Shown here: piece after piece, positions 21,789 to 58,578 of the stretch
Position numbering within the stretch: position 1 is the first letter of the stretch
Layout: each line of letters opens with the position of its first letter
IMG/VR virus record: IMGVR_UViG_3300027518_000007
Coordinates: 575 to 64,574 of that record
Reading direction: 5' to 3' (one strand)
Source: a virus
DNA length: 64,000 bases
Position numbers and translations under genes: made by a program
The notes under the pieces: generated by a model
Database searches by the model: none
What the model was told of the DNA's origin: nothing
Seen by the model: the letters and a program-made list of their open reading frames with translations, nothing else

Positions 21789-22118
21789 ATGCACAGTTCA
21801 AAAAATTATCCGTTGCACAGGGTTGGAGAAAATTGGCTAGTATGGTATATGTCGGATTATTATAATCGTGCGTACTATAACGGTAACACTCCAACTGCAA
21901 AAAATGCACGTATCGAAACTTTTGAGGGTACGGTAGTCAGTTCAAAATGGATGGATAATAAAAAAACTGGACACCCATATGGGTGGCTAGTTGTTATTAA
22001 ACTTGCCGATGGTTCATATCGTTCGCTCTATGAGTGTAAGTGTCAGATGATTAGTTCGCCCAAGAATAAAACTTGGTCGCAGACTATTAAAAATGAATCT
22101 GTAGTTGGTCTCGCCTAA
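21789..22118 (+). CDS. Hypothetical early protein
   Basis: 109-aa ORF; stop lies within repeat B copy 1. Confidence 0.6.
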   Translation: MHSSKNYPLHRVGENWLVWYMSDYYNRAYYNGNTPTAKNARIETFEGTVVSSKWMDNKKTGHPYGWLVVIKLADGSYRSLYECKCQMISSPKNKTWSQTIKNESVVGLA

Positions 22119-22152
22119 TCCTCCGGATTTGGGATGGATGGGTATAGACAGC
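22113..22152 (+). repeat. Repeat B copy 1/6 (40 bp)
   Basis: GCCTAATCCTCCGGATTTGGGATGGATGGGTATAGACAGC. Confidence 0.85.
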
Positions 22153-22589
22153 CTAAAGTTTGCTCCCTTGACGAACCGATAATAATAGTGTAGAATGGTG
22201 CAAAGAAAGAGGTACTGTATGTTGGGAGATTTTATTATGGTGTGGGTCTGGATGGGTGTCATGTGTGGGGTTTTGTTCTTTGCTTATTTTCTCTCTATTG
22301 TAGGAGAAGTTTGGCAAAGGATAAATGAATATGAGAATATGAAATCTAGGGGTTATACTCTTATGAAAAGTGATAAGGGTGATGATTTCTGGGTAGGATA
22401 CGGGGATTGACCGAATAACAATGGAGATGCAAGGATGTGTCAACTGGATTTCGTTAGTGTCGCTTTTGGTTATATTTGTGGTATCGTACTGTACGCTAGT
22501 ATGTCAAATATCATGTATATGGAGGAAAATGATGAGAGCGAGTGACTACATATTGTGGGGGGTGTGTTTTGTTATCGGTTGTGCTATGA

Positions 22590-25421: not shown

Positions 25422-25561
25422 ATACCGATACCTATATAGTCATGAAGGGTAATAAGGTTGTAGGTTATGTTCAAGCGTACAGTACCTATCATGCGTTGTG
25501 TCAGGCTGAGAAACTTTATGGGAAAAATTTGCTAATCGAGCGAATTACCCATTCTTGTCCT

Positions 25562-25601
25562 GCCTAATCCTTCGGATTTGGGCTGAGTGGGTATAGTCAG
25601 C
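25562..25601 (+). repeat. Repeat B copy 2/6
   Basis: GCCTAATCCTTCGGATTTGGGCTGAGTGGGTATAGTCAGC. Confidence 0.85.
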
Positions 25602-25663
25602 CAATAGTCGGGATTTGACAAAGAGCCTTTAATAGAGTATATTGAGCAGAAAGGGAGAGTTTT

Positions 25664-25867
25664 ATGTTGACAGATGATGAGCGTATGGCTGTTTGTGATT
25701 GTGTGGCTGATTTTTCCATTCGTCTGTTCAGTGCTGCTACTGTGGATGAGCAGGCTATTCATGATGAGTTGGATATTTTCTTTGAGTTCTTTTGTAGGGC
25801 TCTTGAGATTGCCAAGAGGGATGGGGTAGTTAGGGTTCGTGAGTCTATTGGGGCTAGTAATAACTAA
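25664..25867 (+). CDS. Hypothetical early protein
   Basis: RBS GGGAG; stop abuts repeat A unit 9. Confidence 0.65.
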   Translation: MLTDDERMAVCDCVADFSIRLFSAATVDEQAIHDELDIFFEFFCRALEIAKRDGVVRVRESIGASNN

Positions 25868-25868
25868 T

Positions 25869-25950
25869 CGTAAGTCCTTATCCTTAAAGAACTTAGGGAT
25901 AGGGCGGCGGGCCGGATTTGATGTAAGTGCTTGTGTATCATAGGGTTACA
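25869..25950. repeat. Repeat A unit 9/15
   Basis: CGTAAGTCCTT-ATCCTTA-AAGAACTTAGG ... TGTAAGTGCTT-GTGTATC-ATAGGGTTACA. Confidence 0.9.
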
Positions 25951-25989
25951 TCAACTCTAAAAAATTTTTGGAATTCCTACAGATAGCTC

Positions 25990-26018
25990 TTGACAAGTGA
26001 CGATAATAGATGTATACT
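25990..26018 (+). promoter_or_regulatory. sigma70-type promoter upstream of candidate ncRNA
   Basis: TTGACA-AGTGACGATAATAGATG-TATACT. Confidence 0.85.
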
Positions 26019-26024
26019 TAGCAC

Positions 26025-26340
26025 ATAAGCAGATGAGGGCCGCTGGCAGAATGATATCAAAGAAGCCACGGTTAAATGGCTGTCGAGTATGGCTCAACCC
26101 TATCTGTTTTATAATACAATTCGCGTGGGTCCATGCCTTGGACTAGGTTAGGTAACTCATTACGATAAGCCCCGCATGTCGCGGCAGCGATGGGGCTGAC
26201 AGTACCGGTTACGTACTGGATAGTAGTGCTAATCTATGGGGGATCGCGTCCTCACCACGTTTAAACTATGCACTGGTAGTTTCCTTAGATAAGGTAAAAC
26301 CTTGAGGTTGTAATAGCACATACCAAGTAGTTATTACGTA
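26025..26340 (+). ncRNA. Candidate structured non-coding RNA(s)
   Basis: ORF-free ~350 nt after a strong promoter; multiple nested stems (see findings). Confidence 0.55.
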
Positions 26341-26542
26341 AAACTATCAGTGCTTGGTAACAATATAAAGGATAAGAGATGAATAAAAACGAAGCTATAC
26401 TTAAGATTCTTAGAGTGTTGAGAAGTCAAGCGGCTGCGGTTAATAAAGCTAATAGAGAAGAAGCATTGACTTTAGCAGATGAATATGGTATAACTGCCAA
26501 AGAATTGATTGACACTTGGGTTGAAATCTGTAGGAATATATA

Positions 26543-26803
26543 ATGGAATGGATTAGTTTTCACGGGCCTCGTCGCCCTATTAATGGTCAAAAGATTATCT
26601 ATTATGGTGAGCCTATTGGTGTGTGGCGTGGAAAGTATAGAATAAACTATGAGGATGAGTTCTGTATTCATAATATTGATTGTGGTGAAGCTCCCGGTAA
26701 TGTTGATTATTTCGATGCTCCGTACTGGCAACCCGATGAGGGACAGCCCAAACCACCACCACCAGAACAGCCCTACCCACCAGATTATCCTTGGAAAAAC
26801 TGA
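26543..26803 (+). CDS. Hypothetical protein
   Basis: 86-aa ORF coupled to a 54-aa ORF at 26379-26543. Confidence 0.6.
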   Translation: MEWISFHGPRRPINGQKIIYYGEPIGVWRGKYRINYEDEFCIHNIDCGEAPGNVDYFDAPYWQPDEGQPKPPPPEQPYPPDYPWKN

Positions 26804-27342
26804 TCGCTTTTCTTGATATTCTCTATCGCCCACAGCGGTTGTAAATTAGAATAGTGAAAACATTCTTTTTGTTGGTCAGAATCGGACAGATCGAATAGAG
26901 CACAAGGTTTTATGTGGTCGATATGCCACTTTCCGTAATTATCCCAATTCATACCTTCTGTAAACATTGCCGATAAATAAACTTTTAATGCCTCGATAGA
27001 GCATCCTATTAAGACCATCGTTGATACAGATTTGCTGTTGTTTTTGATAGCTTTGTAAATTCTACCTCTCAAATTAATTTTAATCTTGTAATTTACGTCT
27101 GTTTGTCTACGTTCTTTTGAGCGTTCTCTTTTACGAGCATTGACTTTGTCACTATTCAGTTTTTCTAACTCTCTTTGTCTGTCTTTATATTTTAAGTAAT
27201 ATGCAGCTTTGTATTCTTTATCTTTGCCTTTACGAGATATAGAGCGACATTCTTTACACTGATGAGCATAGCCGGTCCTTCTTTTATGAAATTGAGATAC
27301 TGATAATTCTTGTTTGCATTTATTACAAATTTTTATATCCAT
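26785..27342 (-). CDS. HNH homing-type endonuclease (paralog of 41704 and 60333 genes)
   Basis: CNKC...CKEC N-terminal Zn motif; WHIDHIKP...CFHYSNLQPLWAIENIKKS. Confidence 0.85.
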   Translation of the reverse strand: MDIKICNKCKQELSVSQFHKRRTGYAHQCKECRSISRKGKDKEYKAAYYLKYKDRQRELEKLNSDKVNARKRERSKERRQTDVNYKIKINLRGRIYKAIKNNSKSVSTMVLIGCSIEALKVYLSAMFTEGMNWDNYGKWHIDHIKPCALFDLSDSDQQKECFHYSNLQPLWAIENIKKSDQFFQG

Positions 27343-27813: not shown

Positions 27814-28223
27814 AACAAAATAAGTTCCATGCTGAAGTAAGATTTCATCTAGGCAAGGGTGAACACTTTCGACATTGGCAGATTAAGGTGATGCGAGGAA
27901 GAAAGAAAGTTGACGAGTATTACTACAATCCGGGCCATTATCAGTTAGTGATGATTGGGTGTAAGCTGGTCAACAACCTGAAGAAAGCTCAGAAGGTTCA
28001 TAAGGCTGGTAAGAAGGATGTTAGTGGGTGGGTAAAGTGTGAAGAGGTTCAAATAAATAACGAGATTAGTATTGACAATCTTGAAAAGCTCTACTATAAT
28101 CCCATTCGCGACCCGCAGTGGCGTAGGGAAAGTGATTGTGGCGAATTTGCTTGGGACGATTCCCAGTATGCCACGCTGATAACACAAGATCGACAAGTCT
28201 ACATTTTGGAGGAAAGAGAATGA
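27810..28223 (+). CDS. Hypothetical protein
   Basis: ATGA overlap with upstream gene. Confidence 0.65.
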   Translation: MKQNKFHAEVRFHLGKGEHFRHWQIKVMRGRKKVDEYYYNPGHYQLVMIGCKLVNNLKKAQKVHKAGKKDVSGWVKCEEVQINNEISIDNLEKLYYNPIRDPQWRRESDCGEFAWDDSQYATLITQDRQVYILEERE

Positions 28224-28594
28224 TTAAGGTTGAGATGAGCGTTCGTGAGGCTCTGAACATGGTGTCGAATGGTTGCAATCTGGATATTTATGAAAAGATC
28301 GTATGTGCGTTTGAGGTTGCATTGGGCGTGAACCAACGTCGTTCTGTCACTATCACTGGAGGGATGAATACGGACAACCGTATTCCTTGTATCAAAGCTA
28401 TTCGTCTGCACACTGGATGGGGTCTCAAAGAGGCCAAGGATTGGAGTGATTATCTGGTTGGTGGTTGGAAGTATGATAAGTGGTATCCTGCTCCATCTGG
28501 CACCAAGCATAGCCTTACTCTGAAAACGCCGGAAGCGGCAGAGGCATTGTTGCGTGACCTGACCACCTTGGGTTGTGAGGGTTTTCTCTCATGA
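28220..28594 (+). CDS. Protein with ribosomal bL12 C-terminal-like domain
   Basis: NRIPCIKAIRLHTGWGLKEAKDW matches the L7/L12 CTD signature KIxxIKxxRxxTGLGLKEAK; start 28220. Confidence 0.7.
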   Translation: MIKVEMSVREALNMVSNGCNLDIYEKIVCAFEVALGVNQRRSVTITGGMNTDNRIPCIKAIRLHTGWGLKEAKDWSDYLVGGWKYDKWYPAPSGTKHSLTLKTPEAAEALLRDLTTLGCEGFLS

Positions 28595-32639: not shown

Positions 32640-32726
32640 GGAAGAATGGCAGAGTGGTCTAATGCATCTGATTACTAATCAGAAGAAGTGTAAAAACTTC
32701 CGTGGGTTCGAATCCTACTTCTTCCG
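32640..32726 (+). tRNA. tRNA-Ser(ACT), rare anticodon
   Basis: GGAAGAA/TTCTTCC, TCTGA-TTACTAA-TCAGA, long variable arm GAAGT-GTAAAA-ACTTC, G73. Confidence 0.85.
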
Positions 32727-32828: not shown

Positions 32829-32836
32829 TTTGTTTC

Positions 32837-32876
32837 TGCTAATCCTGCGGATTTGGTGGTCTTGGCGATAGTCAGC
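32837..32876 (+). repeat. Repeat B copy 3/6
   Basis: TGCTAATCCTGCGGATTTGGTGGTCTTGGCGATAGTCAGC. Confidence 0.85.
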
Positions 32877-33135
32877 GAGAATCCTAAAGTTTTGGGTGTT
32901 GACAGGACGATATTGGTATGGTAGACTGTTGGAACAAGAAAGGAAAGTGATGATGAAGAACCTTCGCATCTATGATATTCTGACTGAGGATGGTAAAACT
33001 CTGGCCGACATTACTCTCTCTATGCAAGAGGATTTTGATTGGGCCGATGTTTTTGATAAGCTGTATGATTTTACAACCGAGAATATTCAAAGTTATTCTT
33101 ACGAGGAAATTACTGTAAACGCCGAATAGGTTGAT

Positions 33136-33447: not shown

Positions 33448-33530
33448 GTGTGTGCATCTAGGTGGGACTAGACCCTAATATATTTATCCTTTCTTGTAAC
33501 GGGCTGTTGGTTCAAATCCAACCACACACT
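33448..33530 (+). ncRNA. tRNA-like element with non-canonical anticodon arm
   Basis: Perfect acceptor GTGTGTG/CACACAC, D-arm TCTAG-GTGGGA-CTAGA, T-arm GTTGG-TTCAAAT-CCAAC; no standard anticodon stem-loop. Confidence 0.65.
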
Positions 33531-36492: not shown

Positions 36493-36541
36493 ATAAAATA
36501 GTAATGAATAATGTAAAAATAAGATTATCATTATCTGTCTC

Positions 36542-36581
36542 GCCTAATCCAACGGATTTGCTGGCGTTGCTGGTAGTCAGC
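36542..36581 (+). repeat. Repeat B copy 4/6
   Basis: GCCTAATCCAACGGATTTGCTGGCGTTGCTGGTAGTCAGC. Confidence 0.85.
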
Positions 36582-36615
36582 CGGAATTATGACTATAGTA
36601 ATAAGTTCCGCTTAT

Positions 36616-37392: not shown

Positions 37393-37802
37393 TCGATGTG
37401 ACGATATGGTATAATACGGCCGTTGGCCCCTGTAGCACTTTTCTTTTCTTATCCTAACCCACACGGAGGCTGTTAATGGTTCTTATTATTCTTGTGATGA
37501 TCTGGTGCATAGACTGAGGAAGGATGCACTCTATTGTATCTTACCCTTCTCTAACTTCTTAACTCTTATTTATCATACGCACCTGCATAATATATACCAT
37601 TCCAGCAGGGGTATGTCAAGAAAGAAAAATCTTATGGACGGCTATTACATTGTTGGTTGTATTCTGATTGTGTTCTTTACTGGCTCATTGTTCATGTTCA
37701 TGGACATGGTATGTAATACTGAAGAGGAAATTGTAATACATAAACCCAAACGAATTTCAAATGGTTATTATCAAGATGAAATTATTGATGATTGATTGTT
37801 CC

Positions 37803-37842
37803 ACCTAATGCTTCAAATTTGGCGTGGATGGCGATAGTCAGT
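37803..37842 (+). repeat. Repeat B copy 5/6 (degenerate)
   Basis: ACCTAATGCTTCAAATTTGGCGTGGATGGCGATAGTCAGT. Confidence 0.7.
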
Positions 37843-38006
37843 CAATTATGGGGGTCAGTTAAAAATTGGTTAACAACTAATGTTTGGTCCTTCAAGTCTC
37901 CTATGGTATAATGCAATAGTCAACGGAGCTGATAGTCAGTCGTCTTGGTGAGAAAAGACGAGGGAGTATCGGAATCATGGGCAAAAAGTGTTTTTAACTT
38001 TTAACC

Positions 38007-38273: not shown

Positions 38274-38680
38274 GAAATTTCATAGAATAATTTCTTTTGA
38301 AGTAGAGGGTGAAATTTATGATCATTCTACTACTCCAGAAGATATTCTAAAAAGCTATGACTGGAAGTTTAAAGGTTTTCACGATAATCATGAAGATAAA
38401 TGTTTCTTAGAATCATCTCATGATGATCATCGTGGACGTATTACTAAAATCATTCGAAAGAATAAGATTAGTAAAACCGATAAGGCAGATACAGAAACTT
38501 TTACAATTAACCAATGAGGTGCTTTATGAATTATACATTAGTTTATTGGAGCGTTGGAACATTAGTAACATTGTTAGCATTAGTATCATTATACTATTAC
38601 TCTTGCCATTGTTCTACTCCAATTATTAAATAGTAAACAATAGTAATTTGGTATTAAATTAATCCGGTAGGGTTAGTCTC

Positions 38681-38720
38681 GGCTAATCCTCCGGATTTGG
38701 TTTTAGTGGTAATAGTCAGC
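38681..38720 (+). repeat. Repeat B copy 6/6
   Basis: GGCTAATCCTCCGGATTTGGTTTTAGTGGTAATAGTCAGC. Confidence 0.85.
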
Positions 38721-38830
38721 GGGATTGTGGGGTCAGTAAGAAATGATATCTTGTCTGGAACATGGATTGATCTATTATACTGTAAATAACGGTCGCATGG
38801 ACGCGACATACTTTCAAAGGAGAAATTTTT

Positions 38831-39046: not shown

Positions 39047-39191
39047 TATTCATGGTTGATAATCTAAAGGATCATGAATGATTTGTTAGGTTATAGATCA
39101 AAGAAAAGATAACCCCCCGATGCCTCTTAACAATGCACACTTTCGGGGGTCTTTTCTTAAAATAGGATTTAATTTATTCAAGGAGGAATTT

Positions 39192-56911: not shown

Positions 56912-57211
56912 ATGAAGGGACCATTAATTTATTATGAAATTAAAGAAATGTATGGTAGTGATTTAAGTAGCACAAAATTGGCTTCTGAATTGCGTAAATC
57001 TATACTTGATGAAATAGACCTTGGCTTTAATGTTGAGGTTGATTTTAAAGATGTCCGTTCATTATCTAGTGGATGGACAAGAAATGCATTTGGGGTTATT
57101 GTAAAAGAAAAAGGTGAAAAATTTTTCAAGAATCATATATTGCTCAGTAATATGAGTAAGGGTGTTAGAAAAAGCGTGTTAGAAGGAATAGGAGAAATAT
57201 TAGAAGTATAA
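56912..57211 (+). CDS. STAS-like DUF4325 protein
   Basis: ASELRKSI...VEVDFKDVRSLSSGWTRNAFG. Confidence 0.65.
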   Translation: MKGPLIYYEIKEMYGSDLSSTKLASELRKSILDEIDLGFNVEVDFKDVRSLSSGWTRNAFGVIVKEKGEKFFKNHILLSNMSKGVRKSVLEGIGEILEV

Positions 57212-58578
57212 TGGTTACTGGCAAAACTCTTATAGACTTAGGATATAAACCCTCAAAGTGGTTTAAGAATGTTATAGATTATGCCAATACTAATAATCTA
57301 GAGAGTGACGCTATACATAAATATATAGATTCTATTGTTCCCAAAACACTAGAACCTCATAGTCAACCAATATCTTTTCATAAGAATATAGTGGCAGATA
57401 ATCAGCACGAACAATCTAATATAGATAGTGTTTGTGCTGCAATGAACAATATATTGACAATTCCTACTGTGGTCAATGCAGCCATTATGCCCGATGCTTG
57501 TCCTACGGGGCCGAATGATATTCCTGTTGGTGGAATTGTGGCTACAAAAAATGCTATTCATCCTAGTATGCACAGTGCGGATATTTGTTGCTCCATGATG
57601 GCTACTGATTTGGGTTTTACAACGCCTAGAATCGCTCTGGAGGCCGCTTTTAAAATTACGCACTTTGGAGTGGGTGGACGAATATCGAACCACAGATGGC
57701 TTCCTAGCGACCTCAAAGATAAAATAATCAGCAATTACTATTTGAGTAGTCCTAAAAGTATAAATTATGCTGAATATCATCTTGGTACTCAAGGCGATGG
57801 TAATCATTTCCTGTTTATAGGAATAAGACAAAGTGACGGTCATACTATGATGGTAACTCATCATGGTAGTAGAGGTTTTGGTGCGAATCTATATAAAGAG
57901 GGTTTGTATAAAGCCGAACAATTTAGACAAGAATTAAGTCCGAATAGTAATCCTAAGCATCCTTGGATTCCCTTTGATAGTAAAGAAGGTCAGGATTATT
58001 GGGAAGCCCTTCAAATAACAAGAGAATGGACAAAACTTAATCATGAAATAATTCATAGGCTAGTTAAACAAAAGGTATTTAGTTCAATTAATAATGAAAC
58101 TTTTTGGAACGAGCATAATTTTGTCTTTAAGAAAGATGATATTTTTTATCACGCTAAAGGAGCGACCCCATTAGAAGATATTTTTGTACCAGATTCTACA
58201 AATGGTTTACGTTTGATACCCATGAATATGAAAGACGGTATTTTAATCGTTAAAGGTGAAACAACACCAACTAATTTAGGGTTTGCTCCTCATGGTGCTG
58301 GGAGAAATCTTAGTAGATCAGAACATAGACGATTAAGATTAGGTATTACCGGCAAGACCAAAGAAGAAATCTTTAAAGATGAAACAGATGGTATTGATGT
58401 TAGATTTTTCTCTGGACAACCAGATATTACTGAGTTACCATCAGCATACAAAGATGCCAACAAAGTAAAAGAACAAATAAAACAATTTAATCTCGGAACT
58501 ATAGTAGACGAAATAGAACCCTATGGTTGTATTATGGCTGGAGAAATAGATAAGCCTTGGAGAAAAAAGAAATGCTAG
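57211..58578 (+). CDS. rtcB: RtcB-family RNA ligase
   Basis: MPDAC, ADICC, LGTQGDGNHF, THHGSRG, EHNF, HAKGATP, PHGAGR, ELPSAYK. Confidence 0.92.
   Translation: MVTGKTLIDLGYKPSKWFKNVIDYANTNNLESDAIHKYIDSIVPKTLEPHSQPISFHKNIVADNQHEQSNIDSVCAAMNNILTIPTVVNAAIMPDACPTGPNDIPVGGIVATKNAIHPSMHSADICCSMMATDLGFTTPRIALEAAFKITHFGVGGRISNHRWLPSDLKDKIISNYYLSSPKSINYAEYHLGTQGDGNHFLFIGIRQSDGHTMMVTHHGSRGFGANLYKEGLYKAEQFRQELSPNSNPKHPWIPFDSKEGQDYWEALQITREWTKLNHEIIHRLVKQKVFSSINNETFWNEHNFVFKKDDIFYHAKGATPLEDIFVPDSTNGLRLIPMNMKDGILIVKGETTPTNLGFAPHGAGRNLSRSEHRRLRLGITGKTKEEIFKDETDGIDVRFFSGQPDITELPSAYKDANKVKEQIKQFNLGTIVDEIEPYGCIMAGEIDKPWRKKKC

Follow-up and report, generated by a model that had tools for sequence, protein, structure and literature searches.

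Comparison of homologous sequences indicates that the region from 26029 to 26359 of the window (the whole 64,000-nucleotide stretch of viral DNA that was analysed) contains, downstream of a single promoter, not one RNA but three that fold independently, here called modules A, B and C; that their structures are real we regard as almost certain. The virus record from which the window comes is linear, 69.6 kb long and about half complete, and the window takes up the greater part of it. The window carries capsid and terminase genes, eight tRNA genes found with Rfam and ARAGORN, and many small cassettes in series, each consisting of a repeat unit and a sigma70-type promoter. The elements of the region are the following:

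25990-26018, + strand: sigma70-type promoter, with the -35 box at 25990-25995 and the -10 box at 26013-26018
26029-26107, + strand: module A, a three-way junction RNA (79 distinct homologues)
26108-26122, + strand: A-rich linker of the AATACAA type, a candidate processing site; the same linker lies between modules across related arrays
26123-26260, + strand: module B, a tRNA-shaped four-way junction (145 distinct homologues)
26270-26359, + strand: module C, short form (distinct sequences: 12 of the short form, 16 of the long)
26360-26378, + strand: last A-rich linker, with the ribosome-binding site for a 54-aa ORF at 26379, as read from the sequence

A preliminary description, made from the letters of the window, had placed a strong promoter after a repeat unit, followed by an ORF-free stretch, and both observations were borne out. 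The promoter matches 11 of 12 consensus bases with a 17-nt spacer and lies about 35 nt past the repeat unit at 25867-25955; other cassettes are headed by the same promoter family (family D8), and transcription would start near 26025. No credible ORF occurs between the promoter and the ATG at 26379. A 49-codon frame (25997-26146) is discounted because it begins within the promoter and because in the homologues the promoter sequence differs and module A has a 1-nt indel, and a 46-codon frame in the region is on the minus strand. Cleavage may take place at the A-rich linker 26108-26122, and the order of linker, ribosome-binding site and ORF seen at the 3′ side likewise closes arrays in relatives.

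Homologues were gathered by scanning viral, metagenomic and genomic collections for sequence patterns, which gave 79 sequences of A, 145 of B and 28 of C (the copy in the window being of the short form); these counts refer to distinct sequences and not to independent genomes, since loci overlap between collections. The three families are absent from Rfam 15, and an Rfam scan of the region, one of the checks proposed in the preliminary description, gave no family match, the only hit at the gathering cut-off or at E<=10 being a chance snoRNA fragment. When folding energies were compared with those of shuffled controls, z was -1.42 for the whole region, -2.41 for B, -0.76 for A and -0.79 for C. 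Given this weak folding energy and the lack of any Rfam or ARAGORN match, the case depends on the homologues: it is covariation among them that argues for structure, energy alone being barely above chance. Compensatory changes were indeed found in the modules, and the idea of an unclassified structured phage RNA cargo occupying a cassette slot is supported by this strong covariation and by the silence of Rfam and ARAGORN.

Module B is the largest of the three and is predicted to fold as follows:

26123-26128/26255-26260, + strand: acceptor-like helix
26129-26143, + strand: D-like hairpin
26144-26151/26229-26236, + strand: anticodon-like helix of 8 bp
26152-26228, + strand: pseudoknotted domain of 77 nt that replaces the anticodon loop
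26152-26157/26207-26212, + strand: pseudoknot between a bulge and a hairpin loop
26158-26163/26223-26228, + strand: helix of the insert
26168-26197, + strand: variable hairpin of the insert
26200-26218, + strand: hairpin of the insert
26237-26254, + strand: T-like hairpin

The junction has no unpaired connector bases. When 54 copies were aligned with plain MAFFT, pairing held in 93.7% of cells and two-sided changes were found in 25 of the 53 pairs; no shuffle or slid register comes close, a comparison that favours the structure over the slid controls, the structure having been defined from the same sequences. An unbiased mutual-information scan of all 145 copies ranked the pair 26158-26228 first and the pair 26156-26208 second, both 100% paired, and their coupled changes on the tree amounted to 7/8/8 and 2/2/2 steps, respectively. 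By this sequence evidence the insert of B is under structural selection.

The outer limits that the preliminary description gave to its two domains, which correspond to A and B, hold across homologues. In the second domain its closing stem (26124-26128/26255-26259) is kept, as are the stems 26129-26132/26140-26143, 26168-26173/26192-26197, 26200-26205/26213-26218 and 26237-26242/26249-26254. However, a proposed ATAG/CTAT stem was paired in 79% of cells, no better than shuffles and with one-sided changes only, and is abandoned. The helices 26144-26151/26229-26236 and 26158-26163/26223-26228 and the pseudoknot 26152-26157/26207-26212 had not been noticed, nor had the palindrome of A (26052-26059) and the loop-tail pseudoknot of C described below.

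The elements of module A are:

26029-26039/26099-26107, + strand: closing helix
26040-26047/26065-26071, + strand: hairpin
26052-26059, + strand: 8-nt palindrome in the hairpin loop, a candidate intermolecular kissing site (homodimer), present in 79 of 79 copies
26082-26084/26091-26093, + strand: small hairpin

Two-sided changes were observed in 14 of 22 tested pairs of A, and its covariation score was reached by none of 500 shuffles. The inner AGCCA/TGGCT hairpin drawn earlier for this domain is not retained (55% of cells paired, with no compensatory change). The 17-nt loop of A contains the palindrome, and although every one of the 79 copies is palindromic there, three different palindromes occur (in 71, 4 and 4 copies); the two halves always change together, with 2/2/2 and 3/3/3 steps on the tree. 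The central bases of the palindrome are adjacent and thus cannot pair within one strand. Palindrome-switching loops are known to pair between chains in the OLE and GOLLD RNAs (10.1101/2024.12.08.627333), and this same signature, found in all copies of A, makes it likely by analogy that A forms an RNA homodimer through its loop. It is possible that the palindrome is instead a DNA operator, but an operator would not require strict symmetry. We also considered A as a Pistol-like RNA (a hairpin with UUAAAU) and dropped the idea, as it has no pseudoknot partner and matches no model.

Module C is made up of:

26270-26282/26341-26353, + strand: closing helix of 13 bp
26283-26307, + strand: arm
26310-26317/26330-26337, + strand: hairpin
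26321-26327/26353-26359, + strand: pseudoknot between the hairpin loop and the 3′ tail

Small hairpins had been suspected at about 26290-26320; they belong to the third module, which runs to 26359. The pairs CCTT/AAGG and AACC/GGTT can form in the copy of the window, while every other variant forms a single arm. Complementarity between loop and tail is maintained in five sequence variants and the hairpin stem remains paired across varied sequences. The long form of C in relatives is built around the same core; it also has, enclosed within it, a tRNA look-alike with a score of 35-38 bits under the tRNA model. The support for C, which comes from the variants just described, is thinner than that for A and B.

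In relatives the modules occur in arrays of up to five or six, joined by the common A-rich linker, and their order and content vary. Among 78 distinct copies of A, the next element is the 40-bp repeat in 45, B in 17 and a tRNA gene in 13, and A itself is usually kilobases away from B. Module B is found alone, in tandem pairs of paralogues and ahead of various modules, and downstream of B four loci (L012, L013, L017 and L022) have further structured modules absent from the window, the long form of C being one. On comparison across relatives, A, B and C prove to be separate, independently shuffled units under selection for structure, which accords with the plural "ncRNA(s)" of the preliminary description.

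The 40-bp repeat mentioned above is a two-hairpin element of 40-50 bp with six copies in the window (22108-22159, 25557-25608, 32832-32883, 36537-36588, 37798-37849 and 38676-38727). In relatives it directly follows A, as counted above, and accompanies both the RNA modules and the tRNA clusters; it is possibly a terminator or processing element.

By its capsid protein the phage is closely related to uncultured phages from IMG/VR, which reach 244 kb in size. Among those selected by this protein, A and B are present in four of five complete genomes, and the modules are accessory. The 40-bp repeat and 8-13 tRNA matches are found in relatives with A and B, whereas those that lack the two modules have 0-4 tRNA matches and no such repeat; in this set of 11 related genomes, several of them incomplete, the association of the modules with tRNA clusters is suggestive only. 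Against cultured phages, the capsid protein matched only Bacillus phage G, at 23%, so that no cultured relative or host can be assigned, and BLASTN of the region and of its most tRNA-like variant gave no match to cultured phages. A scan of GTDB returned three true copies, on MAG contigs of unrelated labels (including Planktophila and Methylococcaceae) that are probably mis-binned phage DNA, the other matches being due to chance. We found no description of the modules in the literature; an automated catalogue derived from IMG/VR, with 10,006 candidate RNAs of viruses (Fremin 2023, PMC10690425), may contain pieces of them.

The preliminary description had found no known RNA class in the region, and Rfam and ARAGORN agree; however, its second domain, our module B, has a tRNA-like cloverleaf outline. 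Like tRNA (RF00005), B shows the cloverleaf order of arms and a putative 12-bp acceptor/T helix, and its relatives have a T-like loop and a frequent CCA. In the subfamily with a short D loop, the acceptor stem and the T stem have 6 bp each, and the T loop, of 7 nt, departs from the tRNA consensus at one base. Unlike tRNA, B has 6+6 and not 7+5 pairs, no connectors, no anticodon loop and a pseudoknotted insert, and it gave no match to RF00005 even at E<=10, nor to ARAGORN. The D and T loops both contain a GC, complementary to each other, as a candidate for the elbow contact of tRNA, with 97% of cells paired and one-sided changes only. The T-like loop of the window copy is non-canonical. A CCA directly follows the stem of B in 63 of 119 and 9 of 23 distinct copies of two subfamilies; the window copy encodes none, and neither do any of the eight true tRNA genes of the window. 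This CCA and the beginning of the linker overlap, and a C precedes the linker in 9 of 18 contexts after B and in 11 of 85 elsewhere, counts that are not independent; the CCA may thus be incidental, through the overlap with the linker. Since the pseudoknotted domain stands in place of the anticodon loop, B is predicted to be unable to decode. A natural 67-nt variant of B (L335:1422-1488, minus strand), which lies in tandem after a full copy, has kept the cloverleaf and the CCA and lost the pseudoknotted domain; it has no 7-nt anticodon loop and fails tRNA models.

The best explanation of the whole, which we put forward tentatively as something just short of probable, is that the region is a small ncRNA operon of a phage tRNA toolkit with B as a tRNA mimic. 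The modules are very probably transcribed: the host-type promoter would yield one precursor early in infection. This precursor is probably cut into separate RNAs, presumably by host nucleases acting at the A-rich linkers. It also seems rather likely that B is handled as a tRNA mimic, in that enzymes of tRNA maturation (RNase P, 3′ trimming and CCA addition) would recognise its putative acceptor/T helix of 12 bp, and the stable, non-decoding RNA so released would occupy host tRNA-binding proteins. Module A would dimerise by its palindromic loop and act as a stable 5′ leader, and the loop-to-tail pseudoknot of C would shield the 3′ end.

Our best guess for the specific role of B, though a doubtful one, is that of an anti-defence decoy, which would draw off toxins directed at the acceptor end or elbow of tRNA and thereby protect translation. 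The decoy reading is favoured by the finding that tRNA-attacking toxins read no more than the CCA with the first five acceptor pairs, minihelices being accepted as well (10.1101/2024.07.05.602228), and by the fact that the modules travel with tRNA clusters. More doubtful still is the wider proposal that these phages possess a shuffled, multi-gene set of tRNA mimics that do not decode and of RNAs that pair with themselves, expressed first in infection, which would act as decoys against host defences that target tRNA and would constitute a kind of RNA counter-defence separate from both replacement tRNAs and RNA anti-CRISPRs.

The modules could also be cis-acting elements of long cassette or tRNA transcripts with no function in trans, a serious though unlikely alternative. 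In that case A would be a 5′ leader or antiterminator, B a punctuation mark for RNase P/Z, and C either a stabiliser of the 3′ end or a self-cleaving RNA of unrecognised type. The position of A, which in 60 of its 78 distinct copies is no more than about 18 nt from such a promoter and which is often ahead of tRNA genes, would fit these roles, as would the usual place of C at the end of the array and the Pistol ribozymes found near tRNA genes in some relatives. However, the genes downstream of the modules vary freely, arrays of the size reported above with their tandem B paralogues exceed what punctuation needs, and B retains an elaborate pseudoknot that is unnecessary for cleavage. In addition, neither Pistol nor any other self-cleaving ribozyme family of Rfam matches in the region, and there is no Pistol in this genome. 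In related phages we observed Pistol ribozymes upstream of tRNA genes, at L031:3618-3680 and G010:C1:16147-16209 (both on the minus strand).

A single uncut multi-domain RNA that forms an RNA-only multimer, with the palindrome of A bridging the chains, is decidedly unlikely. GOLLD and ROOL are likewise neighbours of phage tRNA islands, and tRNAs can occur in their linkers, and palindrome switching is the signature of intermolecular bridges in OLE and GOLLD (10.1101/2024.12.08.627333). Against this, module order and content differ between phages, with A and B usually far apart, no conserved pairing between modules was seen, and neither GOLLD nor ROOL was matched. Those three known RNAs resemble ours as ornate ncRNAs, and the palindrome-switching loop of A, with its three palindromes in 79 copies, suggests that it works alike, which is not membership of the class; GOLLD, ROOL and OLE each consist of one RNA several hundred bases long whose domains keep a fixed order, whereas here modules of 79-138 nt are shuffled and have no Rfam match.

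Type III antitoxin arrays are small pseudoknotted RNAs in tandem repeats of about 36 nt. An antitoxin mimic (type III or AbiF-like) or an RNA anti-CRISPR is very unlikely here. By analogy, small pseudoknotted RNAs with A-rich linkers behind a strong early-type promoter recall the layout of such arrays, but the region contains three unrelated folds of 79-138 nt, no repeat family among those listed lies inside it, and no ToxI, AbiF or CRISPR-repeat family matches there, so that the antitoxin mimic suggested in the preliminary description finds no support.

That B is a tRNA gene with an excised insertion, or a decaying tRNA remnant, is highly improbable: the insert does sit at the position of the anticodon loop, a 67-nt variant exists and an RtcB ligase is encoded in the window, but that variant is not a tRNA by the tests given above, the insert is under structural selection and matches no intron family, and RtcB is absent from the complete relatives that carry B. 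Indeed, RtcB, a CCA-adding enzyme and Ro60 were all sought in five complete relatives and none was found, and for this reason we consider the RtcB RNA ligase of the window (57211-58578, Pfam E 5e-38) to be unlinked to the modules. DNA-level elements (protein-binding palindromes or recombination sites) or chance hairpins are barely credible, for although the folding z of A and C is weak and the region is rich in DNA repeats, G-U pairs are tolerated only on the plus strand, covariation extends to the pseudoknots, and the fold of B is more stable than that of its shuffles on the plus strand (z -2.41) and not on the minus strand (z -0.29).

Returning to the reading as a small ncRNA operon with a tRNA mimic, the nearest parallels include the RNAC and RNAD of phage T4 (species 1 and 2 RNAs, of 139 and 119 nt), ncRNAs linked to a tRNA cluster, of unknown function (PMC3014915, PMC9697503). 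They share with the modules their nature as small phage ncRNAs, a similar size and the tie to a tRNA gene cluster, and RNAC resembles B in having a T-arm near its 3′ end; in contrast, we find several distinct folds in shuffled arrays with a common linker, and our models of A and B, run with filters off, gave nothing at the RNAC and RNAD genes. Module B recalls tmRNA in its tRNA-like ends and in the long helix at the anticodon position that leads into a pseudoknot; however, it has 138 nt, no tag reading frame and no G3-U70 alanine pair (the third acceptor-like pair is G-C), and neither ARAGORN nor Rfam matched it to tmRNA. The YrlA Y RNAs are non-decoding tRNA mimics of bacteria and phages, some of which are cut by RNase P and receive CCA (PMC4201824). 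Unlike B, with its open terminal acceptor helix, YrlA has a closed acceptor hairpin and lies beside the Ro60 gene; a Ro60/TROVE gene was found in none of the five complete relatives and Rfam gave no YrlA match to B. Thus, as far as sequence comparison goes, the modules appear to work like the small RNAs of phage tRNA regions (T4 RNAC and RNAD) and like tRNA mimics such as YrlA, and are members of none of these groups.

The function of the small RNAs of phage tRNA clusters (T4 RNAC and RNAD, GOLLD, ROOL) has been missing for decades. Here, three compact families have folds backed by covariation, natural deletion variants (the 67-nt core of B and the short and long forms of C) and sharp predictions (a dimer loop and tRNA-like ends) that make them readily testable in vitro. 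If B were indeed a decoy, it would represent a new RNA route by which phages protect translation.

We made several minor observations elsewhere in the window. A marginal Rfam match to abiF at 39114-39150 (38.3 bits against a cut-off of 37) resembles a plain GC hairpin followed by Ts and is probably a terminator. An Endonuclease VII/HNH gene on the minus strand (26785-27342) is missing at the same place in the relative L001 and would therefore be an optional insertion rather than a partner of the modules. The small protein encoded at 28220-28594 has a weak match to the C-terminal part of ribosomal L7/L12 (E 3.5e-5, below cut-off). A tRNA-shaped sequence at 33448-33530 has an acceptor and a T arm and an AT-rich, irregular anticodon region, and the tRNA-Ser at 32640-32726 was called with the unusual anticodon ACT.
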